Part shown: in pieces, positions 11,296-40,369 of the stretch
Numbering within the stretch: the first letter of the stretch is position 1
Layout: each line of letters begins with the position of its first letter
NCBI GenBank assembly: GCA_977017645.1
Contig: OZ360229.1
Coordinates: 98,146,001-98,210,000, forward strand
Reading direction: 5' to 3'
DNA: 64,000 nt
Source of the DNA: Torpedo marmorata
Lineage: Eukaryota
The notes under the pieces: model-generated
Databases searched by the model: none
What the model saw: the letters and a program-made list of their open reading frames with translations, nothing else
What the model was told of the DNA's origin: nothing
Made by a program: the position numbers and the translations under genes

Positions 11296-11299
11296 TAAT

Positions 11300-14286: not shown

Positions 14287-15689
14287 GAAATCTGATGGAG
14301 ATGGGGAAGAAGCTGTTTCTGTACTGTTGGGTGTTTGTCTTCAGGCTCCTGTATCTCCTTCCTGATGGTAGCAGTGAGAAGAGGGCACGGCCTGGGTGGT
14401 GAGGGTCTTTCACGATAGAGGCTGCTTTCTTGAGACACTGTCTCTTGTAGATGTCCTCGATAGAGTAAAGGCTGGTGCGCATGATGGCGCTGGCTGAGTT
14501 CACAACTCTCTGATGTATTTTCCTATCCTGTGCATTGGCACCTCCATAACAGACAGTGATGCAACCAGTCAGAATGCTCTCCACGGTACACCTATAGATA
14601 TTTGCAAGATTCTTTGGTGCCATACCAAATCTCCTCACGAAGTATAGCTGCTGGCGAGCCTTCTTCATGATTGCATCAACATAGGGGCCCCAGAATAGAT
14701 CTTCAGAGATATTGACACCCAGGAATTTGAAGTTCTTAACTCTTTCCACTGCTGACCCCTCGATGAGGACTGGTTCGTGTTCTCCTAATTTCCCCCTCCT
14801 GGTCCACAATCAGTTCCTCAGTTTTGCGAACATTGATTGCAAGGTTTTTATTGTGACGCCATTCAACCCGCTGATCTATCTAACTCCTGTATGCTTCCTC
14901 TTTGCTTTCTGTGATTCTGCCGTCAACCATGGTGTCATCGGCAAATTTGTAGACGGCATTTGAACTGTGCTATTTGTTACAAACTCAAAACAGCAATGAC
15001 AGAAGACGCAATGCAAAAGGGGTAAAATTGAAATTTATATTTATTAAATACAATTAAACATATAATTTCTTAACAATTAACCCCACTATAAACGTCTATA
15101 AACACTATTCTTATCTAAAGTGTGTGTTTGTGTGAGTGTGTAAAGCCCAGACCATTACAGTCTGTGCCCAACCCTCATGTAAAAATGGAAAACCTTCCCC
15201 AAAACCCCAGTTCAGTCATAAAAATAAGTCAGTCCCAAAAATACAGTCCACAAAAATCACTCTCTATGATCAGGGTCAAAATTCAGCTCTGTACGCTGGC
15301 ACGAAGGACTTCTTAATGAACATTGGAGAGAGACAATGACTGTTTAAGCTTACGAATGCTTGGCCTGCTTTTCTTCCCTGATGACTTTCCCTTTTGGTAG
15401 GTGCACAAGGATTGTTCTTCCCAAATCAGTATACCACTGATTGAGGCGTGTACTTGGATCTCACAGCCTGTCTCGCTGATCTCACGCCTGTTCTCCACTA
15501 AAGTTGTTTCATATCAGGATTTTGCTGATACAGGAGGCCATGTGCTATTCTCCCAGCCTTTCTAGCTGGAATGCACAAGCCTGGATTTGGCTGTGTTGCT
15601 CCAGCCTCTTGTAACTCCAAGTCTGGATGCTCTTTGCAGAGATTTCCACCTGCTTTTGCAAAAGTGCAACAAAGTATCTTTCCACAGCC

Positions 15690-15720
<31 letters not shown>

Positions 15721-15929
15721 GAGCACAACCAGTCCTGGGCAAGTTAACTCTTTCAGTACATGGTCCCAGTGTGCACTCCAAAAGACTTCATCCTTTCTGC
15801 TGACTGTCCGCAGTCCAAATGGTCAGTCATGGTCCATAACACCTCCCATCCACAAAGAAAATTTTTGTCTGCAAGACCAAAATTTTCGAAATTAATTGAG
15901 GTGTCACAATAAAAACAAAACCCACAATG

Positions 15930-18238
15930 TTCATCCACAAACACAAAAATATGAACTATTTTCATTTATAAAGTTTAGCATCTAGAAAGACAATCAGCGA
16001 TTACATTATCTTTCCCTTTTATATGTGTTATTATTAAATCATATTCTTGCAAAATTAGACTCCAATTCAACAACCGTCGATTCTTATTTTTTATTTTACA
16101 AATAAAACTAATGGATTATGGTCAGTGTACACTATGAGCTGTACAGATATACACATCAAAGTGTTGTAGAGCCAACACGAGCTAACAACTCTTTTTCTAT
16201 GGTTGAATAATTCCTTTGATGATCATCGAACTTCTTCGAGAAGTCGGATACCAGATGGTCAATGTCCTCTTCGTTCTTCCTCTGTAACAGCACCGCACCC
16301 AGCTTCATCGCTGGCATCCACGGCTAAAGAAAACGGCTTTTCTATATCAGGTGACTTAAGCACAGGTTGGTGGCATACAATGGCTTTCAATTTGACAAAT
16401 GCTTCCTGACAACCTGTTGACCATACAAATTTTTCACCCTTTCTAAGCATATTTGTGAGAGGGAGCGCAAGATCTGCAAAGTTTTTACAGAACTTGCGGT
16501 AGTAGCCAATCATTCCCAGGAACCTCCTCAGAATTTTCTTACCAGTTGGAACAGGGAACTCAGAAATAGTCACAACCTTGGCCTCTACTGGCGCCAACTG
16601 CCCCTGTCCTACTACATAACCCATATAAATAACAGTCCCATGACCCTCTCTGAAACTGGTTTTATCTGTCTCCTCCTTACCCCGGTCGATAACCAGCACC
16701 TCTGTTAAATGTTCAGTCTCTTTGTGTGACACCTGTTCAAAATATGGCTTAATCATATTCACATGACAGACCTGTGTGTCTCGTCTGCGATTAGGTGTTT
16801 CTATAACATAGGTGACCTCATTAATTTTTGACTTAACTCTATAGGGTCCTGAAAATCTAGCCCTAAGAGGATTTGAATGTGTGGGAAACAGAACTAATAC
16901 ATTCTCACCAGGTTTAAAAGTTCTCATCTTTGCCTTTCGATCATACCAAACCTTCATTCTCTGTTGAGTGGCCTTTAAAGTCTCCTTTGCCATCTCACAA
17001 GCTTTATGAAACCGATCTTTAAATTTGGAAACATAATCTAACAGATTTAAATGCACATCACTATTAATCCACTGTTCTTTTAATAACCTTAAAGGACCTC
17101 TCACCTCATGTCCGAAAACTAACTCGAATGGACGAAAACCAAGTGATTCTTGGACAGACTCCCTCGCTGCAAATAACAACAAATGAACCCCATCATCCCA
17201 ATCCTTTTCCTTCTCACAAAAAAGGTTCTAATCATGTTTTTCAAAGTCAAATGGAACTTCTCCAAGGCCCCTTGACTTTCTGGATGGTACGCAGAGGATA
17301 CAATCTGTTTAACTCCCAGTCTATCAACCACTTGTTGAAATACTCCTGACATGAAATTACTACCTCGGCAAACCTACCAAGGTGAAAAACTTTACCATAG
17401 CCTTTACAATTGCCTTTGCTTTAATGTTTCTCAGAGGAATGGCCTCTGGAAATCTGGTGGCTGCACACATAATTGTTAACAAATACTCATTCCCCGCTTT
17501 GGTTTTGGGCAATGGGCCAACACAGTCTACAATCACTCTCGAGAAAGGCTCACTGAAAGCAGGGATAGGTTGCAAGGGTGCCACTGGGGGACCCTGATTA
17601 GGTTTACCCACCACCTGACAAGTGTGACAGGCCCAGCAAAAGCTTACAACCTCCCTTCTCAAACTGGGCCAATAAAAATATTTCATTATCTTCCGTATAG
17701 TTTTCTTCACCCCAAGGTGACGACCTAAGGGTGTGCTCGGGATCACAACCTGCTGCACTACTGCCCATTCTTCACTGGCAGGAACATCACATGGTCTCCA
17801 CTTTCTCATCAACACCCCATCTTTTTCATAATAACCCACTGGCACCTTCTTAATCTCCTCTTCAGAGAGAACCTTATCCCTCACCTCAGCAAGATCTGGA
17901 TCCTCCTTCTGCCTTGCTATTAGCTCCTGTCGGGATAGTGACAAATATGTGCCTTTAGGTGTCTTATCAGAGTATGGGTGTAACACAGGAGATTGCTCAA
18001 CCTTTTCCAGGTGTTTTTGAATATCACCGACTTTTTCTTTCATCAATTTATTTTCCACTGCCTTCTCTACAGTGACATTTTTCTTAGACATGGCCCTGGT
18101 TTTGGCACATGCCAGATAAATATCAGAGTCCTTCTCTGACTTATCAATGACTGGCTTAGTGGTCATTAGCACTGCAGGAACTACTTTACCCTCAGCCAAG
18201 TCATTGCCTAGCAACAGTGAGACTCCTTCTACTGGCAA
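15930..18238 (-). pseudogene. Gmr1-like integrase followed by truncated RT thumb/RNase H
   Basis: HLGVKKT..CHTC, IVDCVGPLPKT, YHPESQGALEKFH, RFSGPY, then YMGYVVGQG..FLGMIGYYRKF..AVDASD; the YxDD region is missing. Confidence 0.85.
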
Positions 18239-18249
18239 CTCTTATCTCA

Positions 18250-19771
18250 CTCCTATTATAACAGGTCCTTCCACCAAAGCTGAGTTCAACACTATTTTGT
18301 GCAAAGGAATGGACTCAACATCACCCCCAATTCCTTTAATTAAATTCATTTCACCGGTGTCTGTCTTCACAAAATTCCAAGACACTATCTAACACAATGA
18401 CTGAGCAGCTCCAGTATCTCACAAGATTTTCACTGGAACTTGCTTTGATCCTGCCTTAACTGAAACAAAACCATCAGTCACAAAAGGTTTAAATACATCC
18501 CTAACTTTGTCAGTAAATTTGTCTCCTTCCTGGGTGTTATGCCTCTTCTCACTCTGAATACAAGCATTAGGTTTTGCATCCTTTTCTCTCTTCTTTTTCA
18601 ACACTGGACAGCTTGCGAGCATATGACCAGCCTTCCTACAGTAGTGGCAAATGGGTCCCAAAGGGTTTTCCCTTTTCCACTTTCCTTCATCTCTTTCCTT
18701 AACACCACTTCACAATTTACTTTCCACTTGCTTGGGATTATCCACAGTGCCCTTTTGGAAAATTCTGCCTGACGTCCACTTAGGCTTGTGGGTTAAAGCA
18801 TATTCATCTGCTAACTTAGCTGAATTTTGCCAAGTTTTCACCTCCTTTTCATTTAAGTATGTCTTAATATCCTCAGGAACACACCTTTTTATCTCCTCAA
18901 TTAGTATCAATTCTCTCAATTGATTGTAATCATGGTTCACCACCTTAGATGTGCACCACCGGTCAAAACACACATCCTTTTCATAGGCAAACTCTGTGTA
19001 AGATGGGGTTGCTGATCTTTTTAAATTTCTAAACTTCTGTCTTTCAGCCTCTGGAACTAACTCATAAGCCTGGAGTATAGCCTTTTTCACCATTTCATAA
19101 TCAGCAGCTTGCTCCGTGGTAATAAGCTTGCTGAGCTTTTCCTTTAATTACACTTTGTAACATAAGAGACCATTGGTCTTGTGGCCATTTTAATTTCACA
19201 GCCACCTTCTCAAAATGCTGGAAGTACTTATCTATTTCCACTTCCTCAAATGGAGGAACCGACCTAACTTCCCTACTGGCCAAAAACCTCTCAACCGGAC
19301 CACAAATTTAATCTTGGTGCTCTTCTTGTCTCCTCTCATTTTCCAACTTAATCTTTTCCAGCTCATATTGCCTAATTTTCTCCTCGTTCTCTAATCTTTT
19401 TTGTTCTCTAGCTGCCTCCAAGTCTAATATCTTTTGTTCCAATTCCCTGTCTAATTTCTTTTGTTCCAATTCCCTGTCTAATTTCTTTTGTTCCAATTCC
19501 AATTTCTTTAGTTCCAATTCCCTGTCTAATCTCTTTTGTTCCAACTGTATGTTTTCAGAAGGTTTACCCTTGGGAAACTGCTCTAACACGCTCTCCTCAA
19601 ACTTTTTCCCTTTTATATAGTATTTGGCTATTTTTCTCACAATCTCTGCCTTTTCATTGATGGTTTTACAGAAACAATGCCCAACTCTGTTGCTATAGCC
19701 ATTAACTGTTCCTTTTTAGGCTTTTTTAAAGTATCAGGTTCAGGTGATTCAAAAAATTTTTACACATCCAT
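18250..19771 (-). pseudogene. Gmr1-like gag (SCAN-like capsid domain, CCHC knuckle) and protease
   Basis: VKKAILQAYELVPEAERQKFR...LRELILIEEIKRCVP...KLADEY; CHYCRKAGHMLASC; IL*DTGAAQSL; several frameshifts; 27-bp LDRELEQKK repeats at ~19420-19545. Confidence 0.8.
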
Positions 19772-20887
19772 TGTCGCTGGTTTTTGTTACACACTCACTA
19801 GCTTTTAATTAGCTTTACAAAACGAATGTCTTAAACCAGACTAGGATTACTTCAATTACCAAGATGGAGCTTGATTCAATCCCGGACGAGCCCCCAATTT
19901 GTTACAAACACAAACCAGCAATGACAGAAGACGCAATGCAAAAGGGGTAAAATTGAAATTTATATTTATTAAAGACAATTAAACATATAATTTCTTAACA
20001 ATTAACCCCACTATAAACGTCTATAAACACTATTCTTATCTAAAGAGTGTGTGTGTGTGTGTAAAGCCCAGACCATTACAGTCTGTGCCCAACCCTCATG
20101 TAAAAATGGAAAACCTACCCCAAAACCCCAGGTCAGTCATAAAAATAAATCAGTCCCAAAAATACAGTCCACAAAAATCACTCTCTATGTTCAGGGACCA
20201 AATTCAGCTCTGTGCGCTGGCACGAAGGACTTCTTAATGAACTTTGGAGAGAGAGACAATGACTGTTTTGGCTTACGAATGCTTGGCCTGCTTTTCTACC
20301 CTGATGACTTTCCCTTTTGTTTGGTGCACGAGGATTGTTCTTCCCAAATCAGTATACCACTGATTGAGGCATGTACTTGGATCTCACAGCCTGTCTCGCT
20401 GATCTCACGCCTGTTCTCCACTAAAGTTGCTTTTCCTCAGGATTTTGCTGATACAGGAGGCCATGTGCTATTCTCCCAGCCTTTCTAGCTGGAATGCACA
20501 AGCCTGGATTTGTCTGTGTTGCTCCAGCCTCTTGCAACACCAAACTGGATGCTTTTTGCAGAGATTTGCACCTGCTTTTGCAAAAGTGCAACAAAGTATC
20601 TTTTCACAGCCTATCTCTCTCTCTCTCTGTGTCTCTCTCTGAGTACAACCAGTCCTGGGCAAGTTAACTCTTTCAGTACCTGGTCCCAGTGTGTTCTCCA
20701 AAAGACTTCATCCTTCCTGCTGACCGTCTGCAGTCCAAATGGTCAGTCATGGTCCATAACATTAGCCACACAGTCATGGGTGTAGAGAGTGGAGCAGTGG
20801 GCTAAACACGCATCCTTGAGGTGCGCCTGTGTTGATTGTCAGTGAGGAGGAGACTTTGTGTCCGATTCGTACTAACTGTGGTCTTCT

Positions 20888-23800
20888 TTTTTTTTATTTT
20901 TTTTTTATTATTTTTTTTTTTTTTTTTAAATATTTTATTTAAATTTTTAAATCACACATTACATAAAATAACTTGCATATAATTCTTAAAAAATACATGT
21001 GATTACATTTTCTCCCCCCCTCATCCCACCCTCCCCTCCCTAACCCCTATACCCCCCTAATCTAATTAAAATATATATAAAATAATAATAGTAAAGAAAA
21101 AAAGAGAAAGTAGAGATAGAAAGATAGAGCGAGGAGTCAATAAGCTTAAAAAAAAAAAACACTGATATATCTTAGAGGTTGTTTCGCCGGTAGGTCTAAT
21201 ATCCAGAGAATTCACAATGTTAAACCCATAATCCTCGTATATGGGCCCCAAATTTTTAAAAAAGAATGATATTTATTTCGTAAATTATAGGTAATTTTTT
21301 CCAATGGTATACATGACCGTAACTCTGCATGCCATCGTTCTAAATTTAAATCAACATCCGATTTCCAAGTAATAGCTATACATTTTTTTGAAATTGCTAA
21401 TATTATACGTAAAAATTCTACTTGATACATATTCAATTTATGTCTAATACTAAATTTTTTAATGTCTCCAAATAAAAATAACATAGGATCCATTGCAATT
21501 TCAACATTAAAAATTCTTTCTAAAAAATTCTTAACTTTCAACCAAAAATCTTGAATCTTTGAACATGACCATGTACAATGTACAAAAGATCCTATTTCAG
21601 TTTTACATCTGAAACACGTATCTGATAACGCTGGGTTAAATTTCTTCAATTTTCTAGGTGTCAAATACAATTGATGAAAAAAATTATATTGTACTAATCT
21701 ATATCTCACATTAATAACTTTTGTCATACTTAGTTTACATAAATCTTTCCAATGTTTTTCATCTATATTAACATTCAAATCAAACTCCCATTTCAGTCTA
21801 GACTTATGCTCTCCTACCTTAGACATCTTTCTTTGAAACAACTTATACATTTGTGATATAAATTTATTAACATTAACTTTGGTAATTAATAACTCCAATT
21901 CACTTTGTCTTAATACTGTTAATTCATTCCCTAATCTTTCAATCAAAAAAGCTCTAACTTGAAAATAAACTAACATTGTATTATCTAATATATTAAATTT
22001 TTCCTTTAACCTCTGAAAGGTAACAAATTTACCTGCTTCAAAACAATCTTTTAATGTCTTAACTCCCTTTAAAAACCATAACTTAAGTAATTGATTATCC
22101 ATAGAAAATGGTAAAAGTGGATTCTGATATATTGGTGTATTTAAAGAAATTAATCCTTTTTGACCTATCTCCTTATCTACTTGCGACCAAATTTCCAACA
22201 AATGTTTAATAATTGGTGTTTTTTTCTTTTTAAGTAATAATAATTTAGGATTCCATTTATAAATAATATCTTCTTTATGTATTTCTCCCATATTATTCAA
22301 TTCTATATTAATCCAAGCAGAAGTTTTATTCAAATCAAAAAATTCATTAATAAATTTTAACTGAGCTACTTTATAATAATGTTGAAAATTAGGAAGTTGT
22401 AATCCTCCCATTTCATAATTCCATGTTAATTTATCTATACTTACTCTTGCTAACTTTCCTTTCCATAGAAATTTCCTAACAATAAATTTTAAATCTTTAA
22501 AAAATTTATTTGGAATACCATAAGGAATCGATTGAAAAAGATATTGAATTCTTGGAAAAACATTCATTTTAATACAATTTACTCTTCCCATCAACGTTAT
22601 AGGTAAGTCTTTCCAAAGCTCTAAATCTTTTTTTATTTTAATAAGTAAAGGTGTATAATTTAATTTATACAAATTTTCCAAATTTGTGTCTACTTTAACT
22701 CCCAAATATTTAATACTCTCTGTAGTCCACTTAAAGTCTGTAACTTCTTTACATCTAGTATAATCCCCTTGTGATAAAGCCAAAATCTCACTTTTATCTG
22801 AGTTAATCTTATATCCTGATATCTCACCATATTCTGTCAATATAATAGCCAATTGTTGAAGTGATGTAACAGATTTTGTCATATATATTAATACATCATC
22901 TGCAAACAAACTAATCTTGTGCTCTTCCCTACCAACCTTTATTCCCATTATATTTATATCTTCTCTAATCATTTCTGCTAAAGGTTCTATTACCAACACA
23001 AACAAAGCAGGTGATAAAGGACATCCCTGTCGTGTTGATCTTGATAACAAAAACTTTTGCGATATCTGTCCATTTGTAACTACTTTAGCTGTAGGTTCCT
23101 TATATATAGTTTTAATCCAATTTATAAAATTATCTCCAAATCCAAATTTTTCCAAAACCTTAAATAAGAAATTCCACTCTACTCTATCAAATGCCTTCTC
23201 TGCATCCAGTGTTACTACCAGTGGTAGATCTTGTTTCTTCTTATATACATTAATTAAGCTTAACAATCTAGCTATATTATCTTTCGAATATCTATTTTTA
23301 ATAAATCCGGCTTGATCCGAATGTATTAAATGTGGTAAACATTTAGCTAATCTATTTGCTAAAATTTTCGCCATTATCTTATAATCTACATTTAGCAATG
23401 AAATAGGCCTATAAGATTCTGTTTTTAATACATCTCTATCTTTCTTTGGTATAACCGTAATAATAGCATTTAAAAATGTCTTCGGTAATAAATGAGTTTC
23501 CTTAACTTGATTCAATACCTCCATATACAAAGGTATCAATAAATCTTTAAATTCTTTATAAAATTCTACTGGAAATCCATCATCACCTGGAGATTTACCA
23601 CTTCTCAACGTCGATATTGCTTCAGTAACTTCTCTCATCGTAAAAGGTAAATCCAAAGAATATTTACTTTGAACAGTCAATTTAGGTAAAGTAATTTTAG
23701 ATAAAAATCTATTTATCTTCGTTTCATCTTGATCTGTCTCAGATCTATATAAATTCTGATAATATTCTTTAAAAGATTCATTTATTTCTTGTGGCTTATA

Positions 23801-25204
23801 TGTTATTACCCCCGTATTTCTCTTCCTTATAGCATTAATTGTTTTAGAAACTTGCTCTTTTTTCAATTGCCATGATAACACCTTGTGTGCCTTTTCCCCT
23901 AGTTCATAATATCTTTGTTTTGTCCGTACTATCAATTTTTCAGTCTTACGCGTTTGCAATAAATTATAATGTAATTTCTTCCTTACTAAACGGTTCCTCT
24001 TAAGAATAGACCGGTTTCTCTGTGAATCTTTTTCCATAATTTCAATCTCCTTCTCTAATTTTTCTTCTTCTCTCAAATAATCTTTTTTTATCTTTACTGA
24101 AAAACTTATTATTAAACCTCTTAAATAAGCTTTCAAAGCTTCCCATACCATAAATTTATCATCTACCGAATTATTATTTACTCTTAAAAATTCCTGAATT
24201 TCTCGTCTCATATATTCACAAAAATCCTTCCTTTTCAATAATAAAGAATCAAATCTCCAGTTATAAATAGTTTTTTCTTTCTCTGGAATTATACACGTCA
24301 TTAATAAAGGTGAATGGTCCGAAATTATTCTTGCTTTATAAGATATCTGTGTTATTCTTTCCTGAAGTTGTGAAGACAATAAAAATAAATCTATCCTAGA
24401 AAAAGAATTATGTCTAAATGAGTAGAATGAATAGTCCTTCTCCCTAGGCTTTAATTTTCTCCAAATATCCACCAAATTTAAATCCTCCATCAAATTAACT
24501 ATCTTCTTCACTATTTTTGGTCTAACAGCTGTTTTAGAAGTTTTATCCATTATTGCATTTAAACAACAATTAAAATCACCACCAACTAAAATATTATCTT
24601 TGGCATCTGATAAATGTAAAAAAGCATCTTGAATAAACTGTTCATCATCTGGATTTGACACATACAAATTCATAAGAGTCCAAAATTCCGAATAAATTTG
24701 GCAATAATCAAAACATATCTACCTGCCGTATCTATCACTGTCGATTGTATCCTGAAGGGCAACTTTTTATTAACTAAAATAGCAACTCCCCTTGCTCTAG
24801 AATTAAATGATGAAGCTACAACATGTCCTACCCAATCTCTTTTCAATTTCTGATGTTCAACATCCGTCAAATGAGTTTCTTGTAAAAAGGCTATATCTAC
24901 CTTCAATTTTTTTATATATGTCAAAGTTCTTTTCCTTTTAATTGGATTGTTAAGCCCATTTATATTAATACTAACTAAGTTTATACTCTTAGAATCCCCC
25001 ATAATAAAATAATAATCCTTCCCTGTCAATCAGATCCACCAGCGTATCCCTCTTACTCATTTGCATATATATGTCCTCCTCTATTAGAATGAAAAAAAGA
25101 AATATTAAAATAAGAAAAAAAACCCCTGTAAAGAACACTGGTCTTCTATTCCCAGTGTTACCCCCCTCCATTGTTCGAGAAGCGGTTCTCGCCGCTAAAG
25201 TGGT
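20888..25204 (-). mobile_element. L1-clade LINE, 5'-truncated (ORF2 plus 3' UTR and poly(A))
   Basis: 15-bp TSD taactgtggtcttct (20873-20887, 25205-25219), poly(A) tail on minus strand at 20888-20928, G-rich 3' UTR tract. Confidence 0.93.
21212..25029 (-). pseudogene. L1-clade ORF2: APE endonuclease, RT and cysteine-rich C-terminus, one frameshift near 24700
   Basis: SININGLNNPIKRK..FLQETH, GGDFN, SDHSP, YRPISLLNVDYK, TRQGCPLSP, FADD, CFRCKTEIGSFVHCTWSC. Confidence 0.92.
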
Positions 25205-26231: not shown

Positions 26232-27540
26232 ATATCATATCTAAAGGAGACCAGTCAGACATGATTATTACAGCCTATAGTGAAGAATTTGAAATACCAT
26301 AAGTGAATGAATTGACAATAAAAATAGAAAATGTTAGAACCATCTCGCAGACATTATCAATGGGGAGAGAAAATAAAGCCGACTTTTCAGATGAAGAATC
26401 CTTCATCAGTGTAAGAGCCGTAGGCTCGTTAACTTACCGTTGTTGCGGCGCTCCGATGTCTCGTCGGGCCTTGGAGCGCTCGCGTTGTTATGTAGGCCGT
26501 CCTCGGAGCGCTCCGAGGCCACGTCGGGCCATGGAGCGCTCGCGTTGTTCTGTAGGCCGCCGTCGGCCCGTTTCTTTGATCTGCGCATGCGCGGGAGTGC
26601 CGACGGACACATGCGCAGTATGGAGTGACGTCATTGTGCGCGTGGGAGGCTGGGAATTGTAGTATGCGCGGTGGAGGGTGCGCAGAGCCATTAGGAGTGA
26701 CGGAGGATGCGCAAATCAAGTTTAGAGAGAGAGAGAGAGAGATAGAGAAGGAAAGGAAAAGATGTATGGAGGGTGAGTCTGGTCTCCACATCTTTATTGA
26801 CCGTTTTATTGACCGTTTTATATCGTTTTATAATGTTTTTATAACTTCAACATCATCTCCAGTGTTTCATATCGTTTTGGAATTGTTTAAGGAATAATTT
26901 AAAGGAACTCATCATACATCGTTTACAAGAACTGTTTATATTAAAGTCATTGAAGATTACTGCAAGTCATGTGTGAAAATAAAGGTTTTGAACATATTGG
27001 ACTTTGTTAGTAAATTAATTAAAAACGCGTCAAAAGCAAGGACCACACTTAGCCTCCAGGTGACTATTGGTGGAGCGAAGTCACCATTACTTATAGTCAA
27101 TAAAGGGCTGGCTGTTTGGAACAGAAGTTTGAAGGAAAGAAGATAGAAAAAACTCTCTGTGCTTTGGACTGATATAAATTGGTGGCCATTTTGGAGATGC
27201 CTCGAGTTGGGGGCAGTTTGTAATCCACTTCCATCTGCCATGAATAACAGCCAGAGAGGGATTTAAAGCTTCAAATCTTATAATAAAGTGTCCTATAAAT
27301 ACGTTGGAGAAACCATTTTTGGAAAATCAGTGATATTAGTGACGGATGTTGTGGTTGAAACTCGTTTGTGGATTGCAGCACATTACAGTCATTAGAAGTG
27401 GTAGGCATAAGTCTGTGGACTCCTTCTGTGTATCTTTAGCAAGTAAGAACACAGATTGGAATTGCTGCCGCTGGTCCATTGGGGACTGTTGTTTGGCTAG
27501 TGTTGTGTATGCTTGAAGGAAAGAGGAACAAGACGAGTAA

Positions 27541-30500
27541 AATGGCCGCAGCAGCCACTGATACAGCAGCTACTGATTTATCAGCAGCTGACGCAGCAAC
27601 CGCTGATGTTGCTGTTGAGGACCAACGTATTGAAGACATGAAGGTTGCGGATATTAAAGAAGAATTGAAGCGACTGAATAAGGACATAAGTGGAAATAAA
27701 AAGGTTCTTATTGAAAGATTGAAGCAGGCAAAGGATGAAGAGGCAGCTTTATTAGTTGAACAAGAAGATAACTTGGAAATGGCTGAAATTGTGTCAACAA
27801 ATGATGAACAATTTGAATTGGATAAAGAGGTAAGTATGAAGACAACATATGAACTGCAGGACGAAATACAAGCAAGTGACAGTGTCTCAAATGCTGAAAG
27901 CAGGAGAAGCAAAAGAAGTTCTGGTTCAAGCTCCAGAGTTTCTCGTACTTCAAGTTCTGCATCGTCACGTACAAAGGTTGATGTTAAATTGGCCGCTCTT
28001 CTTGCACAACAAAAAACGCTTAAGGATAAATTTATATTAGAACAAGAGGAGGAGCAGCTAAGACAAAATGAGAAGCAGCTAAAGGAGCGGCTAAGACAAG
28101 AGGAGGAGCAGCTAAGACAAAAGGAGGAGCAGCTAAAGGAGCAGCTAAGACAAGAGAGGGAGCAGCTAAGACAGAGAAAAGAACTGCAGGAGCTGGAAGC
28201 AAACATTGCTATTGCCAAGGCAGAAAAGAAAGCAATAGAAGGCTCAATGGTATCTGGTGCTAGCAGTAAATTATCTAAATTGTCTGATAATAAAAGGTCA
28301 TATTTAAAAAAGGAGTCACAGGAAAAGAAACCAACCAAAAGGATAGATATTTTAGAACCAAGGATACAAAACTTACATATACAACGTCAAACCTTTCAAG
28401 AGCATTTTGGTATCGAGTCACATGTACCAATGGTAACATCTGAAAGCAAAGCTGCAGATTGGGTTCGGTCGAACGAAGTAGCTTCTTTGTTATGTGAGTC
28501 AAGCATCAGAAATATGGAAGAAACTACACCAGTAAGGTATCCAGATACATTGCATGCAACAAGAAACAGTGAACAGAGCAATGTATTGTCATCCAAGGAA
28601 AGACAAAATGAAATTGCTGCATCATTGTTTCAGTTACAGTCTCTCTCTTCTTTACCCAAGAAAGAGATACAAACTTTTGATGGTGATCCACTTCAATATC
28701 AATCATTTATGAGATCTTTCAAACGCAATATTGAAGATAAATGCCAAGATCGTGATGAATGTCTTTATTATTTGGAAATGTTTACAAAGGGACATCCAAA
28801 AGAACTGGTTAAAAGTTGTAAACAAATGTCTTCAGGAAGAGGATTAGACAAAGCTAAGGATTTATTGGAACAATATTTTGGCAACAAGCAACGAATTGCT
28901 TTAGCTTATATGGATAAAGCTCTTAAATGGACATCAATAAAACAAAATGATGTAAAGGCTCTGCAAGAGTTTACTCTGTTTTTAAGAGGATGTTGTAATG
29001 CTATGGAAGAAATCGATGGTATTCGTGAGCTTGATGTGCATAGTAATATGCGAATCATTTTAGAAAAATTACCTTACAAGGTGTGGGATAGATGGAGAAA
29101 TTTGGCTTGTGATTTACAAGTAAATTATGGTCGAAAAATTACTTTAAAGGATTTGGTAAATTTTCTTGAACGACAAGTGTATGTTGAAACAGATCCACTA
29201 TATGGAAATACAAGAGATAATTCAATGGGCAAAGATGTAAGAAAGTCTAATTCACAGTCTAGTCCGAAAGTGAAAAGGAGTACATTTGCTACTAATGTGC
29301 AAGTTATAAGTAAAGAAAATGACAAAGTAAATAAGGAAAAGGAAAGTTTGCCTAATGAAAGGAGTTGTTTGTTCTGTAAAGGTGGACATGCTTTGGAAAT
29401 GTGTTTACGATTGGAAAAGAAGGAACATAAGGAAAAGATCGCTTTCTTAAAGGAAAATGGAATATGTTTTAGCTGTCTGTGTAAAGGGCACATCAGTAAA
29501 AACTGCGAGAAGCGAATTAATTGTAAAATATGCAATTTGAAACATCCTAGAATTTTGCATATCCATAACAGAAACAAGGAATTGGAAAAGGAGCAAACAG
29601 AAACAAAGGAAACAACAGAAAATAATGTTATAACCTCGGTTCAGACAAGTGGTCTTACTGGGGCCGGGGTGAATAACTGCAAACTTTCAATAGTACCTGT
29701 ACAAGTCAAGGCCAAGAAAGGGGATGCAATAGTAAAAACATATGCATTTCTAGACCCAGGCAGCACTGCATCTTTTTGCACGGAAGGACTAATGAATAAA
29801 CTTAATATTCAAGGAAGAAGATCAAAAATTATGTTAAAAACCATGGGTCAAGAAAAGGTTGTTGAAACTAACATTGTTTCAGGCTTAGAGGTTGCTGGAT
29901 TGGATGACAAAAAATTTTGTGATCTTCCAAGTGTATATACTCAGAAGACTATGCCTGTGAATGAAGGAAATATTCCTCATCAAAGGGATATCCATCATTT
30001 AGCTTATCTATGGAAGGTTTATTTACCTGAAATTAATTCTGAAATAGAAATGCTGATTGGTTCAGATGTGCCAAAGGTTTTGGTACCAAAAGAAGTAATA
30101 GAGAGTAAAAGGAATGGACCTTACGCTATTAGAACCATACTTGGTTGGGCAATCAATGGACCAATGGAAAGAAATAATGATATTGCTCAGGAACAGGTAG
30201 CGATAAATGTTAATAAAATTTCAGTTGAGAAATTTGAAGAGTTAAGAGAAGAGCAAAAAACCGTGAATAAGAAAATTACTTATGAAGAAAAGAAAACAGA
30301 TCAATGTAACAATAAATCAGTGGTATTTAAAACAACATTGAAGAAATTAATTTCGTCAGAAATGGATGAAAGTGAAGTATTAGAAGATATTGCAAATAAT
30401 ACTATTGATCATTCATGTGTAATTGAATCAGATACAGGAATAAAACAAGTGACTGAAAACAAATCTGAATGTAGATTTTGTAGTTCAGAGATTACAATTG

Positions 30501-31231
30501 ACAAAGCTAATGAAGAATTATTGCAATGTGATGTAAAAATGGAGAACACAGAAAATTGTGCTGATGGAATAAAGAATAATAATTTAATGCAATTGAATCC
30601 AGAGAACAAAATGATGAAAGGGGAATTGGAAATATTAGATAATCAAGAAAACAGTAAACAGAAAGATTTAATTGTAAGTAAAACTCGCAAAGTCAGAAAG
30701 CGGAAGAAAAGAATAACTGCTGAAGAAATGAATACAGTTATTGAGGAAAGGGATTCAGCATTATCAAAATGTAAAAGGTTGGAGGAAGAGATTAATGTTT
30801 TGAAAGAGATCAAGTTATTGGTTAATAACACAAAACAGTTAACTTTTAAAACCAATCAAGAATGTAAATTGAATGTTCAACAATTAACAATGCAGAAAGA
30901 ATGTGAAATTGCATTGCAGAAATGTAACAAGCAAGACGAAGAAATTAAAAAATTTCAAGTATGCCGCAACAGGATTGACAATGGAACTATCAATGTATCG
31001 CATGATATTTTGACTTCAGATCAAATTATTAATTTCTCGGAAGGAGCTGAGACTGAATTGAAAGTTGCGAAATTGGATTTAGCATTGCAGGAAAGAGCAA
31101 TAGAAACCAGAGTGGTTAAACAGACCTGTTTAAAATCGAAAGAATCAGATAAATATTCAAATTCTAATTCTAAGAGTTTAAATTCTTCACATGAGAAGTG
31201 GAATACTGAAGAAAGGAATAAAGTGAAATGA
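27541..31231 (+). CDS. BEL/Pao SAP-Gag-protease polyprotein fused to a MIPOL1-like coiled-coil C-terminus; no RT/RNase H/integrase
   Basis: Open frame 27479-31231; SAP-like MKVADIKEELKRLNKDISGNKKVLIERL, FDGDPLQYQSF (DUF1759-like gag), three Cys/His knuckles, AFLDPGSTASF protease, PYAIRTILGWAINGP, then RITAEEMNTVIEERDSALSKCKRLEEEI. Confidence 0.88.
30362..31130 (+). other. MIPOL1: captured, intronless MIPOL1-like host gene segment within the BEL ORF
   Basis: RITAEEMNTVIEERDSALSKCKRLEEEI...NNTKQLT...NQE...LTMQKECEIALQKCNKQDEEI matches recalled vertebrate MIPOL1 RITAEEMSALIEERDAALSKCKRLEQEL...NNMRHLT...NQE...LSMQQARETAVQQYKKLEEEI. Confidence 0.75.
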
Positions 31232-31339
31232 CGTGCTGAAGAAGTGCCTTGTGTTAAATTCAAAAGAAAAACTGTATCTATTTTGTCTGAGGAGGATTTG
31301 AAGTTTACTGGTTGACGTTTTAACTCAAAGATTATAGAG

Positions 31340-31530
31340 ATAAAAGAACTTTAAAGAGACATTGTGATTGTTATGGATGGTTCAACTTCAAGAAATTCCT
31401 GGTTACTTGGAAAAGATTATTGAGACTTTTCAAGACAAAGAGGACTTGTGCGTCAAGTGCGAATTAAAACTAAGACTGGTTTTTCGAAACAGAACTATTA
31501 ACAAGGTCTGCCTTTTGTTGGAGACAGAGG
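31340..31530 (+). pseudogene. decayed BEL integrase C-terminal remnant (DUF5641-like)
   Basis: DIVIVMDGSTSRNSWLLGK / GLVRQVRIKTKTG / INKVCLLLE in shifting frames. Confidence 0.75.
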
Positions 31531-32519
31531 AACTTTGATAAATATAAACTGACTTTATTTGTTGTTGTATATTTCACAGGTTACAGACTTTTGTTGAATC
31601 AGAGTTATGGTAAACTCTAGATTTATGAAGAAGGAAGAAAGAAGATTTGTATTGTTTTGAATATTATGGTTATTATTATTTATAGTGTAATTATTATTCA
31701 AGACATTACGTCTAATTATAATAATTAGGGGCCGGTGTAAGAGCCGTAGGCTCGTTAACTTACCGTTGTTGCGGCGCTCCGATGTCTCGTCGGGCCTTGG
31801 AGCGCTCGCGTTGTTATGTAGGCCGTCCTCGGAGCGCTCCGAGGCCACGTCGGGCCATGGAGCGCTCGCGTTGTTCTGTAGGCCGCCGTCGGCCCGTTTC
31901 TTTGATCTGCGCATGCGCGGGAGTGCCGACGGACACATGCGCAGTATGGAGTGACGTCATTGTGCGCGTGGGAGGCTGGGAATTGTAGTATGCGCGGTGG
32001 AGGGTGCGCAGAGCCATTAGGAGTGACGGAGGATGCGCAAATCAAGTTTAGAGAGAGAGAGAGAGAGATAGAGAAGGAAAGGAAAAGATGTATGGAGGGT
32101 GAGTCTGGTCTCCACATCTTTATTGACCGTTTTATTGACCGTTTTATATCGTTTTATAATGTTTTTATAACTTCAACATCATCTCCAGTGTTTCATATCG
32201 TTTTGGAATTGTTTAAGGAATAATTTAAAGGAACTCATCATACATCGTTTACAAGAACTGTTTATATTAAAGTCATTGAAGATTACTGCAAGTCATGTGT
32301 GAAAATAAAGGTTTTGAACATATTGGACTTTGTTAGTAAATTAATTAAAAACGCGTCAAAAGCAAGGACCACACTTAGCCTCCAGGTGACTATTGGTGGA
32401 GCGAAGTCACCATTACTTATAATCAGACTTGGGAAATGTGTAGAAAAAAAATAGAAACAGAAAAGAAATAAGAAACAAATTAAAATAGAAAGGTGCAGCC
32501 ACATCAATGGAGAGAAAAA

Positions 32520-34080: not shown

Positions 34081-34979
34081 ATCACTTTTAATTTTCCTAT
34101 GACAGTGTTAAGTGAAGGAATCTAAGATGGGTAAGGGTCATGATCCCACTAAATAGTGAAATCAACATGAAGGACTGATAATTAGCTGCATGTGTACTTT
34201 TTCAAGTATAGTTACAAAGACAATGTAGGCAACACATACAGCAAAATGACATTGTGTTAATTTAGAGAAAAAAATCTTTAAATTGAGCTTTATCTAAAGC
34301 ACTTAACATGTGTTAGGAAAAAGTTAATGTTCTGCTGTTAGAATGTGCTTTTAAAATGCTCTTTGAAATAGCAGCTGCATGCCTGTGCAGACATGTGAAA
34401 CCAAAAACCAGACAGGGGGAGTGTTTTGCAATTAAATGCTAGAATTGAAATAGGGTAGTGGCAAAAGCTTGCGATAGGGGCGAACGTATGGTACTGCAAA
34501 CAAAGAAACAGTGATGGGGGATGAAATGCCTAAGAAGTACATGATGATAAGGGGTAGAACAGAATGTGAACTCATGTAACCTGTGAGTAAAATAAATGTA
34601 TAAAAGGCTGCTACACTGATGGAAAGGCACTCAACTGCTCTGACAGCAAGTTGAGTCCAAATCTGCAGACTTGTTACAATTAAAAGTCAACCGCTGCTGC
34701 TTTTGCTGAGACTCCGTGTGAGTTCTTTTCTGACAACTTGGGGGCTCGTCCGGGATCCCCACTCCGGTCGTGAGGGTCGAGAGAAGGGACATCGGAGAAG
34801 GTGCACCCCGCCGAGTTCGGCGGTCCCCGACTCCTTGCTCGTCGTACCCACGCGGCTTGAGCGAGTGATATCCGGACAGCGCAGAGCGGAAGACTGGGAA
34901 GAAGTAGAAGGACGGTCCAGGGCGGCACACCGGGTAAGTGAGTACGACGGTACTACTAGGATAAGGTGTGACCGGGCGA

Positions 34980-35256
34980 AAGGGAGCAAAAGGAGAGTTC
35001 GGGTGTATTCCCGAAGGTACCTCCAGATTGTCCCCTAGACAGGCTCAAAGAAAAGGGAGCCGAAGGAGAGTTCGGGTGTATTCCCGAAGGTACCTCCAGA
35101 TAGTCCCCTAGACAGGCTCAAAGAAAAGGGAGCCGAAGGAGAGTTCGGGTGTATTCCCGAAGGTACCTCCAGATAGTCCCCTAGACAGGCTCAAAGAAAA
35201 GGGAGCCGAAGGAGAGTTCGGGTGTATTCCCGAAGGTTCCTCCAGATAGTCCCCTC
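34980..35256 (+). repeat. 73-bp tandem repeat (~3.7 copies) covering the gag 5' end
   Basis: aggagagttcgggtgtattcccgaagg starts at 34991, 35064, 35137 and 35210. Confidence 0.9.
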
Positions 35257-35262
35257 GGGAGA

Positions 35263-36330
35263 ATGTTAGCAAATTGGGATTTGGGACGGACGAGAGGAAA
35301 GCAGAAAATGAAAATGATCGGGTTTAGTAGTTTATGGTCAAAGCAACCGATAAAAGGGCAGTCAGTTTGGTGGCCACCATTTGGGTCAGATGAGGGATGG
35401 GTAAGGCAGGCTCTGAATGTGTATGTAAATTCTAAGCCTCATCCGCAGGCGGATGAAAGGGAATATGCCTCCTGTTGGGTCCCAGGGCCCGGGGATTCAA
35501 CAAGAAGTTTTAAAATGCAAACGAAGAAGGACGAAGGAGAAGCCCCCTGGGAAGTATTAAACCACCTACCTCCTCCTTACACCCCTCCACCACTAAATCC
35601 TGAGGTCTCAGCCCCTGAAGCAGTGCCCTCTCATGAAGAAGTAAATGGACAGGAAAGGGGAGAGAGAGAAGAAGGGAGGGATCCCCCGGATGACAGCTGC
35701 CGAAGGAAGATAATGACAAGGGCTGAGACCAGACGAGGGCTGGAAGACGAGGACGGGGCAAAAATATGCCCATTAAGAGAGGTACCTATGGGAGGTCCCG
35801 ACGGAGGGACCGGGTATGTGAATGTGCCTCTAACAAGTACAGAGGTGCGAGCCTTCAAGAAGGAAACTAAAAATTTACTTGAAGATCCAATGGGACTAGC
35901 GCAACAATTAGACCAGTTCTTGGGTCCCAACATATATACCTGGGATGAAATGTATGCCATAATGGGAACGTTGTTTTCCGCCCAAGAAAGGCAGATGATC
36001 AGACAGGCGGCCATCGTGGTATGGGAAAGGGAGAGGCCGCAAGGGGCAGCAGTAAACGGAGAGCAGAAATTTCCCCTAGTGGATCCACGATGGGATAAGC
36101 AGACCGAGGAAGGACGAATGTTGGAACAAGTACTGGCTGAGTTTCAATGCAGTCCTGAAAACCAGTTACTACAATATATAGATGATTTACTTCTTTCCGG
36201 ACCTGAGGAGGGTGAAATCAGAGAAGACACTATCAGACTGCTAAATTTCTTAGGGGGCAAGGTCTCAGGGTCTCCAAGACAAAGTTACAATTTGTGGAAA
36301 AAGAAGTCCGATATTTGGGCCATGTATTAA
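35263..36330 (+). pseudogene. gag: truncated Gag (MA, PPPY late domain, CA N-terminal part) fused to RT YIDD segment
   Basis: WPPFGS, PPPY, PLREVP, then WDKQTEEGR joined directly to MLEQVL...LLQYIDDLLL at ~36118; NC and protease absent. Confidence 0.85.
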
Positions 36331-38711
36331 CTAAGGGAAATCGCTGCATCACGTCCGAAAGAGTGGCTGGAATTATTAAACTCCCCATACCACAAAGTAA
36401 AAAGGAAATACGCCAATTTTTGGGACTAGTGGGCTATTGCCGAATATGGATCGAAAATTACACACCACTGGTTAAGTTCCTATATGAAAAACTAGGAGAA
36501 GAAGAAAGGAAGGTTCGATGGACAGAAGAGGAGGAAAGATTGTTTGAAAAGATAAAAGGACAGTTGATAAGAGCACCAGTATTGGCTCTCCCCGCCTTGG
36601 AAAAGCCATTTCAACTATATGTCAATAATGCTGAGGGAATCGCGTCTGGAGTCTTGACCCAAGAGAAGGGGGGAAAGCGCCAGCCAGTAGCCTTTTTATC
36701 TAAAATGCTGGATCCGGTATCCAGAGGATGGCCAACCTGCATCCAAGCCGTGGCCGCCACTGCAGTACTAGTGGAGGAAGCACGGAAACTGACGTTTGGA
36801 GGAAAAATCACCGTGTACTCACCACACTCAGTGAGTGCCCTGTTGGCACAAAAGGCCCACCGGTGGCTAACAGATTCCAGGATCTTGAAATATGAGATCA
36901 TTCTGATGACCGGCGAAGACCTGAATTTCACGAAGGATCCCAACTGCAATCCGGCCCAGTTCCTATACAGGACGGGAGGAGAGGAAGGGCCAGAGCATGA
37001 TTGCCTTGAGTTGGTGGACCTGCAGACCAAGAGTCGTGAAGACCTACAGGAGGTGCCCCTGGAAGAGGGACAGGAGTTATATATTGATGGCTCCTCCAGG
37101 TGCATTGATGGAATACGACATAGCGGATATGCTATCATTGACGGGAAAACTGGAAAAAGGGTGGAATCAGGCAGGCTCCCTGCCAGCTGGTCGGCTCAGT
37201 CATGTGAACTGTATGCCCTCCAGAGGGCACTGAAATGTCTGGAGGAGGAAGTCGGAACGATATATACGGATTCTAAGTATGCCTATGGCATTGTCCATAC
37301 GTTTGGGAAGATATGGAAGGAGCGAGGATTGATTACAGCACGAGGAAAAGGTCTCGCACACGAGCAGATGGTGGGTCTGACCCTAGAAGCCCTGGCATTA
37401 CCCACAGAAATTGCAGTGGTACATGTTCCGGGTCATCAGAAGGGACACTCTCCAGAGGCCGTAGGAAATCGACTAGCTGATGAAGAAGCTAAGCGGGCAG
37501 CCATTGAAGAATCGGTACAACTTTTAACTCTGATACCGGTGAGAGAAAAGCCGACGAAACTACCGGTCTTTACGCAAATGGAGATCGATAAAATGAACCA
37601 ACTAGGAGCCCAGAAGGATGCCGATGGTAAATGGAGGATCTCCGACGGAAGACAAGTACTGAACAGGGAAGTTACCCGCAACATTCTTCAGCAGCTACAT
37701 CAGCAAACCCACTGGGGAGTCCAAGCCCTATGTGATACGGTGCTCAGGGAATATGCATGTAAAGGAATCTACACCCTGGCTCAGCAGGAAGTGGTGGGAT
37801 GCCCCATATGCCAAAAGGTAAATAGGAAGGTGATGCGAGCTACTCCCGGAGGAGGACAGCCCCTGGCCCTGAGACCATTCCACCGAGTCCAGATCGACTT
37901 CACCGAATTGCCCCCGGTACAAAGGTGGCGGTACTTGTTGGTAATTGTGGACCATTTCACAAGATGGGTAGAGGCATATCCAACCACCAAAGCAGATGCC
38001 CCAACAGTAGCCAGAATATTGTTGGAGAATATTGTCCCGAGATATGGTGTGATTGGGTCAATAGATTCTGATCGTGGAACACACTTTGCATCCAAGACAC
38101 ACCAGCTTATCTGTGATGCATTAGGTATTGAATGGAAATTACACACTCCTTGGCATCCGCAAAGTTCAGGACGAGTCGAGCGAATGAATAGCACTTTAAA
38201 AACACAACTTACTAAATTGATGACGGAGACAAAATTACCTTGGACCAGATGTCTTCCTATTGCATTACTGCGGATTCGTACTGCGCCCCGTAAAGACATT
38301 GGACTCTCTCCCTATGAGATGTTGTTCGGACTACCATATTGGAGCCAAGTAGAGGGATATCCTACGTTGCAAGGGGGGGATATCTTTATAAGGGACTATT
38401 TACTGGCATTGTCTCGTTCCTTTGCAGAGTTGCGGAAAAAGGGGCTTTTGGCCCAGACTCCCCCATTGGATTTCGCTCTACACCAGATTGTGTCCGGAGA
38501 TTGGGTCCTTGTGAAAACTTGGAAACCAGAAAAACTCCAGCCGCAGTGGGAGGGGCCTTTTCAGGTCCTATTGACTACTGAGGCGGCGGTACGAACGAAA
38601 GAAAAAGGGTGGACCCACGTTACACGTGTAAAGGGGCCAGTGGAAGGCCGAGAAAAAGTGTGGACTTGTGAGAACACGGACTCCCCTTTGAGACTTATTT
38701 TGAAACGATGA
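36294..38711 (+). CDS. pol: ERV Pol C-terminal part: RT thumb/tether, RNase H, integrase (open for 805 codons)
   Basis: FLGLVGYCRIWI, YIDGSS, YTDSKYA, GNRLAD, HQQTHWG..CPIC, QIDFTEL, SDRGTHF, SSGRVERMN, WEGPFQV. Confidence 0.85.
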   Translation: MEKEVRYLGHVLTKGNRCITSERVAGIIKLPIPQSKKEIRQFLGLVGYCRIWIENYTPLVKFLYEKLGEEERKVRWTEEEERLFEKIKGQLIRAPVLALPALEKPFQLYVNNAEGIASGVLTQEKGGKRQPVAFLSKMLDPVSRGWPTCIQAVAATAVLVEEARKLTFGGKITVYSPHSVSALLAQKAHRWLTDSRILKYEIILMTGEDLNFTKDPNCNPAQFLYRTGGEEGPEHDCLELVDLQTKSREDLQEVPLEEGQELYIDGSSRCIDGIRHSGYAIIDGKTGKRVESGRLPASWSAQSCELYALQRALKCLEEEVGTIYTDSKYAYGIVHTFGKIWKERGLITARGKGLAHEQMVGLTLEALALPTEIAVVHVPGHQKGHSPEAVGNRLADEEAKRAAIEESVQLLTLIPVREKPTKLPVFTQMEIDKMNQLGAQKDADGKWRISDGRQVLNREVTRNILQQLHQQTHWGVQALCDTVLREYACKGIYTLAQQEVVGCPICQKVNRKVMRATPGGGQPLALRPFHRVQIDFTELPPVQRWRYLLVIVDHFTRWVEAYPTTKADAPTVARILLENIVPRYGVIGSIDSDRGTHFASKTHQLICDALGIEWKLHTPWHPQSSGRVERMNSTLKTQLTKLMTETKLPWTRCLPIALLRIRTAPRKDIGLSPYEMLFGLPYWSQVEGYPTLQGGDIFIRDYLLALSRSFAELRKKGLLAQTPPLDFALHQIVSGDWVLVKTWKPEKLQPQWEGPFQVLLTTEAAVRTKEKGWTHVTRVKGPVEGREKVWTCENTDSPLRLILKR

Positions 38712-40369
38712 AAATATTATGCTTTTTGTGTTTCTTCATACTTTTGACGTTATGTTATAAAGATGTCAAGGGGGAAAGAAAGAAAGTGCGGGAAAGAAGG
38801 GGGGCCACGGTTATGGCACCCCCAGCTGGGTCAAATGTAATAATACCCCTAGAATGCTTTAAGAATAAACAAATAAAGTGCTATACATATGATGAAGTAC
38901 AGCACCCGTATTGGTTAGTGAAAAATGCTAAGCCAGGTAATTATAAGATCTTTGCGCTCTGTCCCAGGGAAAACTCATTCTGTGTTTCATATGGAAAAAG
39001 GGAAAGGTTAACATGTCCAAAGAACCTTTTACCTTGTGATAATAGCTCAGACCAGAAGAAAGAAAATAGGATAATAAAAGGAGAAGGAGCTCCTAAAAGA
39101 AAGGAGAATCTTTTTATTGATTTGGCAACACGTATAGCGACTAGCTTGAATGTGAGTGGATGTTGGGTCTGTGGAGGACCATTTTTGAGTGAACAATGGC
39201 CCTGGGTGGGTGAGCCGGTAAATGTATGGCAGCTCCTGGAAAAGAATTGGACAAACAGACGGGATCCGGGAGAAGAAAGTTGGAAATTGACCAACTTTCC
39301 AGAGGGACAAGTATGTGTTGAAGGTGGTGGAAGTGTAAAGGTGGGAGTAAGCCCTTGCAAAAATGTTAAGTTGGCAAAAAGCGATGGCTACCGGACATGG
39401 AGGCCAGAGGCCCCTATGTGGTATATATCAGGGAAGGGGAAAGATAATTGTACCCGACTCTCTGGGAAAGGGGAATTATGGAATTGCAGTGGATCGAGTC
39501 CTTTTGAGGGAGTGCCTATAGTACGGAATGTGTGGAGAAATGCAAGGGAAGGGGGACCTGCCCCTGAGGGTCTTTTCTGGATATGTGGTAATCAAGCATA
39601 CACTAGGTTACCCTCCGGCTGGGCTGGTGTTTGTTTTTTTGGTATTATTCGACCAGAATTCTTTCTTCTTCCTGAGGAGGATGGGAAAGATTTAGGGATA
39701 AAGTTGTTCGATTCCCTACAACGAGAGACCCGTGGCATAAAGGTGGGGGAATGGGGTGATGAGTGGCCCCCGGCCCGAATTATTGAATATTATGGACCTG
39801 CGACATGGGCACAGGATGGGTCCTGGGGTTATCGCACACCCATCTATATGTTAAATCGAATTATTCGACTCCAGGCGGTGGTTGAGATAATTACGAATCA
39901 GACCGCACTGGCATTAGAGTTATTGGCCAACCAACAGACCCAGATGAGAACAGCCATTTACCAGAACAGGTTAGCTCTTGATTACCTTTTGGCCTCAGAA
40001 GGGGGTGTTTGTGGAAAATTTAACTTGACCAATTGTTGCCTAAAGATAGACGACAACGGTAAAGCGGTGCTGAAAATTTCGGACAAGATCCGAAGGCTAG
40101 CTCATGTGCCCGTCCAGCGTTGGAATTCTTTGGGTAAACTGAGTTGGCTCGATGACCTCTTTGGAGGGACATGGTGGAAAACAGCATTGCTAATGGTAGG
40201 GGGCATATTGTTAGTGCTCCTCTTGTTACCCTGCATTATTCCCTGTTTCCGCATCCTTATAACTCGAATTGTGATGCAAGTGATGCAACCAGGGGAACCT
40301 GCTGACCCTGTGAAAATGTTGCTCCAAAGAACCCCAGAGGGAGGGGGTTGGACCCCCTGGAACCCTTAG
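38708..40369 (+). CDS. env: intact retroviral envelope glycoprotein, ERV3/HERV-R-like gamma type
   Basis: Signal peptide, CWVC motif, furin site RETR, WPPARIIEYYGPATWAQDGSWGYRTP, ISD YQNRLALDYLLASEGGVC, CGKFNLTNCC, hydrophobic TM and cytoplasmic tail; ATG overlaps the pol stop (atga). Confidence 0.93.
   Translation: MKILCFLCFFILLTLCYKDVKGERKKVRERRGATVMAPPAGSNVIIPLECFKNKQIKCYTYDEVQHPYWLVKNAKPGNYKIFALCPRENSFCVSYGKRERLTCPKNLLPCDNSSDQKKENRIIKGEGAPKRKENLFIDLATRIATSLNVSGCWVCGGPFLSEQWPWVGEPVNVWQLLEKNWTNRRDPGEESWKLTNFPEGQVCVEGGGSVKVGVSPCKNVKLAKSDGYRTWRPEAPMWYISGKGKDNCTRLSGKGELWNCSGSSPFEGVPIVRNVWRNAREGGPAPEGLFWICGNQAYTRLPSGWAGVCFFGIIRPEFFLLPEEDGKDLGIKLFDSLQRETRGIKVGEWGDEWPPARIIEYYGPATWAQDGSWGYRTPIYMLNRIIRLQAVVEIITNQTALALELLANQQTQMRTAIYQNRLALDYLLASEGGVCGKFNLTNCCLKIDDNGKAVLKISDKIRRLAHVPVQRWNSLGKLSWLDDLFGGTWWKTALLMVGGILLVLLLLPCIIPCFRILITRIVMQVMQPGEPADPVKMLLQRTPEGGGWTPWNP

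Follow-up and report, generated by a model that had tools for sequence, protein, structure and literature searches.

The BEL/Pao element that we analysed in a 64,000-nucleotide stretch of Torpedo marmorata DNA (hereafter the window) carries, behind its 5' LTR, a site complementary to a segment of the LTR itself, and this complementarity is real, covarying, and clade-wide. We consider it very likely that this BEL/Pao clade uses its own RNA as the primer for the minus DNA strand, in a Tf1-like manner. Self-priming had been suggested by a sequence-only reading of the window, and the suggestion is now supported by the complementarity, its covariation, the lack of TGG, and intron-split matches in relatives, all of which are evidence at the level of sequence. 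The replication of BEL/Pao elements is poorly understood and has been described as tRNA-primed (PMC8742986). If self-priming is true, a third LTR superfamily, BEL/Pao, would have abandoned the tRNA primer, which would account for the missing recognisable binding site in such elements. Self-priming elements would presumably also escape silencing by tRNA 3' fragments.

Anatomy of the window element

The element and its neighbours in the window are composed as follows.

26410-32421, + strand: BEL/Pao element, full span, with two identical LTRs and a target-site duplication
26405..26409, unstranded: target-site duplication ATCAG, left
26410..27095, + strand: 5' LTR of 686 bp with TG...TA ends; the 3' LTR has the same sequence
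26792..26801, + strand: 10-nt segment proposed as self-primer; a further pair, G:U, comes from T26791; by analogy with Tf1, cutting is predicted behind C26801
26804..26813, + strand: tandem near-copy of the LTR motif, a dispensable duplication confined to the subfamily
26978..26983, + strand: AATAAA, probable polyadenylation signal within the LTR
27059..27085, + strand: predicted U5 hairpin immediately before the LTR end
27096..27105, + strand: putative primer-binding site GTCAATAAAG, without TGG, complement of 26792-26801
27440..31231, + strand: single open frame, 1263 aa from stop to stop
30257..31355, + strand: about 1.1 kb dissimilar to autonomous relatives, replacing about 3.2 kb of RT-RNase H-integrase
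31727..31735, + strand: polypurine tract
31736..32421, + strand: 3' LTR, with a second motif copy at 32118-32127
32422..32426, unstranded: target-site duplication ATCAG, right
34311-40824, + strand: endogenous retrovirus with identical 427-bp LTRs, a TGG-type binding site, and Gag_p30, RNase H, integrase, and Env matches
8269-12720, 14972-20761, and 21212-24718, - strand: two Gypsy-type elements (LTR similarity about 94%) and a 1168-aa LINE-type frame, adjoining the BEL copy

The frame at 27440..31231 encodes, in this order, SAP, a DUF1759 Gag, zinc knuckles, a DPGS protease motif, and a tail unrelated to pol. DUF1759 (PF03564) scored above the cut-off at residues 413-553 of the window Gag, and the zinc knuckles and protease motif were recognised by eye. 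The window copy and its autonomous relatives in the same genome are approximately 93-95% identical over gag-protease, and neither the domain search nor the comparison with relatives recovered RT, RNase H, or most of the integrase in the window copy. Taken together, its identical LTRs, its replaced pol, and the BEL domains of its relatives mark the element as a young non-autonomous BEL/Pao copy. All 81 copies scored are 98-100% identical over Gag-protease and have open frames of 886-1372 aa, which suggests a large young non-autonomous subfamily in which the frame of Gag-protease plus tail is kept open. Within 30257-31355, the gag-protease frame continues into approximately 1.1 kb of unrelated coding sequence that is rich in lysine and glutamate.

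The polypurine tract is common to nearly all relatives examined, and the distance from AATAAA to the binding site is about 118 nt in six related families. Many families have a predicted U5 hairpin, and in the other families of the same genome a stem of different sequence is predicted at the same place; the z score is -1.5 in the window, -2.5 and -4.1 in two other families, and -0.7 in a fourth. A splice-donor-like GTGAGT is present at 26773-26778; three of the four own-genome families have it, at a distance of 13-14 nt upstream of the motif. No spliced form appeared in four contig runs aligned to 26400-28000, a kind of data that does not reveal transcript starts, ends, or splice joints. The domain search of the neighbouring endogenous retrovirus (34311-40824) gave no RVT_1 match.

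Self-complementarity of the window copy

According to the sequence-only reading, the 5' LTR is followed not by TGG but by GTCAATAAAG (27096-27105), which directly adjoins the LTR end and is the exact reverse complement of 26792-26801 within the LTR; a G:U pair at T26791 lengthens the 10-nt helix by one, and C26801 lies opposite G27096. All of this was confirmed. In the window copy and the youngest subfamily, LTR and site adjoin without a spacer, but other copies and families have 2-7 nt at this position. Likewise, the tandem near-copy of the motif does exist at 26804-26813, but it appears to be incidental: it was rejected as a functional second motif, as only 9 of 30 close copies carry it and its pairing probability in folding is 0.00.

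When the LTR was dinucleotide-shuffled 5000 times, a 10-nt match arose at offset 0 in 2 shuffles and at offsets 0-7 in 6. Among 4630 internal 10-mers, two have a complement in the LTR, and this binding site is one of the two. The same test applied to three neighbouring LTR elements in the window yielded 6 nt at most; the TGG-type sites of two of these neighbours (the endogenous retrovirus and a Gypsy element) are presumably of the tRNA-Pro type. Chance complementarity could be invoked for a match that is only a 10-mer in an AT-rich LTR. However, the 2 matches in 5000 shuffles speak against it and the covariation across families already refutes it, such that chance is scarcely conceivable as an explanation.

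Covariation within the host genome

Covariation between the two arms in related families was one of the checks proposed for self-priming, and both arms were indeed found to change in a compensatory manner, in the same genome as well as in other hosts. The genome contains at least six different motif/site pairs, each complementary to its own LTR, and a TGG start is absent from every site examined. A first sample comprised 20 loci picked by Peptidase_A17, 15 of which had usable LTR ends. A 9-11 nt match between LTR and site was present in 14 of these 15, with one locus showing no match in its 5' LTR, and the loci represent four families with different pairs, one being the window family (F1). In a second type of pair, the site has G for A and the LTR C for T; another family is one base longer in both arms; and a fourth differs by several changes in both arms, with GTCGACAGAGA and its exact complement. 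At least 10 consecutive Watson-Crick pairs were found in 29 of 30 copies of F1, 28 of 30 of F2, 20 of 30 of F3, and 24 of 30 of F4, although this conservation is biased upward because each set of 30 loci, query included, was found by motif-containing DNA.

As a counter-sample, we took 40 of 150 loci found via the Gag domain only and not via LTR DNA. A recognisable LTR end was present in 28 of the 40, and none of the 28 has TGG behind it. In 25 of the 28, at least 10 of 12 positions pair with an LTR stretch located 158-259 nt upstream; five of the LTR-end anchors were derived from this set itself, and L274 is counted among the three that do not match. The Gag-chosen copies add a distant family whose site begins with ATTCAAAGAAAA and has as many as 16 nt of pairing, and a further family whose site begins with GTCAATAGAA; in one of these two, the site starts with A. 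The families of L045 and L050 have a second, partial copy of the binding site some 20-30 nt behind the first. When the genome was searched with the RT region of a distant relative, nothing above 54% identity was found among the 150 scored, and thus no closer second clade was seen among them.

These sites also bear on whether a host tRNA half or another small host RNA primes synthesis, with the LTR match being secondary. Priming by half-tRNAs is known in Copia lineages, according to excerpts of PMC6317226 and PMC10886601. A host primer is hard to reconcile with the six or more distinct sites of this genome, each of which tracks its own LTR, or with intron-split matches (see below), which would make no sense if the primer came from the host. 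Furthermore, the best tRNA match is 6 nt and none lies at a tRNA 3' end, in a set of 33 predicted genes with 9 anticodons (30 loci) that includes some over-long false calls and lacks the tRNA-Pro for a positive control. The tracking of own LTRs weakens the host primer more than the tRNA scan does, and we regard it as highly improbable.

Matches across introns in distant relatives

An alignment of 30 homologues led to 75 metagenome loci, of which the 54 with some 5' coverage were scanned; the named homologues are teleost and hemichordate proteins, and a search of viral contigs revealed no relatives. A match between LTR and site was found in 27 of the 54 loci, being contiguous in 7 and intron-split in 20. 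Each of the seven contiguous pairs (10-15 nt) is a distinct sequence that matches its own LTR. The other 20 loci, belonging to 12 families with 7 distinct sites, show a match of 11-15 nt only after a GT-AG intron inside the LTR is skipped. These introns measure 77-478 nt and have pyrimidine-rich acceptors, the exon junction lies 4, 5, 6, or 7 nt from the 3' end of the primer, and the intron is present in both LTRs wherever both are present (L166, L169, L179, and L182). A match that exists only with the intron removed points to pairing at the RNA level. The remaining 27 loci gave no credible match, and those inspected mostly lack the LTR or part of it. Several matches were dropped because of their position: those of L170 and L176 (10 nt) and a second 10-nt match in L169/L191 lie outside an LTR context, and a 14-nt match in L183 lies upstream of the element and is separate from the 12-nt spliced match of this locus.

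Among 23 family representatives, none of 468 cross-family tests reached 10 nt, which again speaks against chance, and internal decoy 18-mers did so in 3 of 1380; the representatives were picked because they match, and copies are related by descent, so that these counts are not independent events. When a two-part search was run without the GT-AG requirement, the canonical join was the sole best in 2 of 10 families and in one LTR of a third, while in the remaining families it was tied with non-canonical joins and once beaten by them. The splicing interpretation is therefore drawn from the existence of a canonical solution in every intron-split family and not from uniqueness.

In a quick, unrooted tree of RT-RNase H (45 rows), contiguous and intron-bearing families are separated by a branch supported at SH-aLRT 97; the named teleost proteins fall on the contiguous side and the hemichordate protein on the intron-bearing side. 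It is possible that a whole clade of BEL/Pao is self-priming and that its older state was gated by splicing, with the spliceosome joining the two exons of the primer in the 5' R and the 3' R staying unspliced for inheritance of the intron. The families on the fish side, including that of the window, would then be intron-less descendants that arose through a reverse-transcribed spliced 3' R. We give this joint proposal an even chance of being correct. If the splicing-gated reading is true, the binding site in the DNA would be a fossil copy of an exon-exon junction. In the intron-split form, reverse transcription would depend on host splicing for its start, and the splice junction would have to equal the complement of the binding site. 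Were transcription to start at the motif, the spliced families would have an unusually short first exon of 4-10 nt.

Variation beyond the helix and folding

In F1-F4, variation peaks locally at the base that immediately follows the helix, which is non-modal in 8, 6, 7, and 9 of 30 copies, respectively. Of 30 such variants, 22 pair with the next upstream LTR base where about one third is expected, although shared descent means that these are not 30 independent events. A variable and mostly pairing base at this position is expected if the site is recopied from a primer whose 5' end wanders slightly, and it suggests that transcription may start within a few bases of the motif.

This footprint is left unexplained if the helix is a conserved structure that serves packaging, dimerisation, translation, or the hiding of AATAAA while something else primes. 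Long-range 5' helices are common in retroelements, and the window site does contain AATAAA. However, families F2, F4, F5, and F6 retain the pairing without AATAAA, which leads us to reject masking of the hexamer; the 3' arm always starts 0-7 nt past the LTR end, the position required of a primer; and a TGG site was not seen there in its stead. A purely structural role is thus very unlikely.

Folding gave helix probabilities of 0.94-0.99 in four of five copies when the RNA started within 10 nt of the motif, and of approximately 0 in those copies with a leader of at least 40 nt; one F1 copy gave 0.02. In the window, the helix probability drops to 0.00-0.12 once the folded stretch reaches 27200. 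Folding thus agrees in part with a start close to the motif. The region as a whole folds no better than its shuffles (z 0.68). To look for the duplexes that flank the site in the Tf1 pretzel, stems across the site were compared with shuffles, and none of 23 families did better at p<0.05; a stem between U5 and leader was accordingly unsupported.

Proposed mechanism

Under Tf1-like self-priming, transcription would start a few bases upstream of 26792, and the RNA would fold back at its 5' end to pair with the complementary site that lies 294 nt downstream, behind the LTR. As in Tf1, a cut would then follow C26801, probably made by the RNase H of an autonomous partner, which is invoked because the window copy has none. 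Reverse transcriptase would extend the 3' end of the primer through U5 and R before jumping to the 3' R. Finally, plus-strand synthesis from the polypurine tract would copy the RNA primer and thereby regenerate the site in every cycle; with the site regenerated from the primer, the LTR motif and the site would change together. In the distant relatives, where the primer sequence is split by an intron, the primer would be present only after splicing by the spliceosome.

A primer derived from the element in trans or in some other way, such as an abortive transcript, a small RNA excised from LTR sequence, or a 3' end cleaved at polyadenylation, in place of one released by RNase H from folded-back genomic RNA, would be expected to leave the same covariation and the same recopying footprint. 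The polyadenylation variant can be ruled out in the contiguous families: in 11 of 11, no AATAAA or ATTAAA occurs 8-45 nt upstream of the primer end, and in 9 of 11 the hexamer is instead located downstream, approximately 118-176 nt before the site. Overall, we consider such primers unlikely.

Relation to known systems

The autonomous relative L043 encodes RVT_1, Peptidase_A17 (E 1.7e-46), integrase, and DUF5641, in that order. BEL/Pao membership is indicated by a PR-RT-RH-IN pol in this relative, the DUF1759 Gag, the 686-bp LTRs, and the polypurine tract. The elements resemble the Belpaoviridae (PMC8742986) in their LTRs (0.2-1.2 kb), a single gag-pol frame (approximately 2050-2130 aa in intact relatives), the polypurine tract, the domain set, and, in the window element, a 5-bp target duplication. 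In the ICTV description, members of the family replicate from a tRNA primer, and their 18-nt site pairs with the 3' end of tRNA-Arg or tRNA-Gly (PMC8742986). The clade described here differs in lacking such a site, as there is no TGG in the window copy or in 28 of 28 Gag-chosen copies. This absence concerns a described trait and not a phylogenetic criterion of the Belpaoviridae.

Excerpts of PMC7175516, PMC10085805, and PMC4600332 describe Tf1 as having no tRNA site, about 11 nt of LTR complementary to a site behind the 5' LTR, and an RNase H cut between bases 11 and 12. Tf1 is an established self-primer, and the same mode has been put forward for the Tf1/sushi group, for Tcn1, and for the TAR lineage of Copia (PMC7175516, PMC10085805, PMC4600332, PMC6317226, and PMC11042837). 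Our clade resembles Tf1, Tf2, Tj1, and the Tf1/sushi group in lacking a tRNA site and in having an LTR segment of about 11 nt that is complementary and, here, covarying. In Tf1 cDNA, moreover, the site is retained as a copy that bears non-templated 3' additions (PMC11042837), and these fit the variable base past the helix in our families. However, Tf1/sushi elements are Ty3/gypsy chromoviruses, whereas the present clade has Peptidase_A17, DUF1759, and DUF5641, and the pol of L043 gave no chromodomain match. The three-duplex pretzel of Tf1 was not recovered, the spacer between LTR and site is 0-7 nt here, and the primer is intron-split in 12 relatives, for which we found no equivalent report in Tf1/sushi. 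The window clade thus works like Tf1 in self-priming and is not a member of Tf1/sushi. In the Ty1/copia TAR lineage (with Houba and Osr-1) and Tcn1 (Ty3/gypsy), self-priming was predicted from complementarity between LTR and site, according to the accessible text of PMC6317226; these are plant elements of superfamilies other than BEL/Pao. We found no report of BEL self-priming or of an intron-split primer in the literature searched, with subscription journals, Repbase Reports, and supplements outside its scope. Two BEL papers (PMC554778 and PMC3118150) make no mention of a primer, PBS, or tRNA, and the available portions of PMC3601003, PMC10886601, and PMC3286476 contain nothing on BEL self-priming.

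Unequal spacers and tandem copies

The gap between the LTR end and the site varies from 0 to 7 nt both between and within families (L034, L046, L045, L035, and L041), and an integrase would thus need to trim ends of unequal length. Gag matches repeat every 5.4 kb or so at G000:C77:26974766-26981766 and G000:C1:226126054-226133122, a spacing that approximates the element length minus one LTR. It is possible that these are tandem copies with a common LTR, which might have formed by unequal recombination or by an integrase-independent route of the Tf1 type; such a route, producing LTR-sharing tandem copies, is described for Tf1 in the accessible part of PMC11042837.
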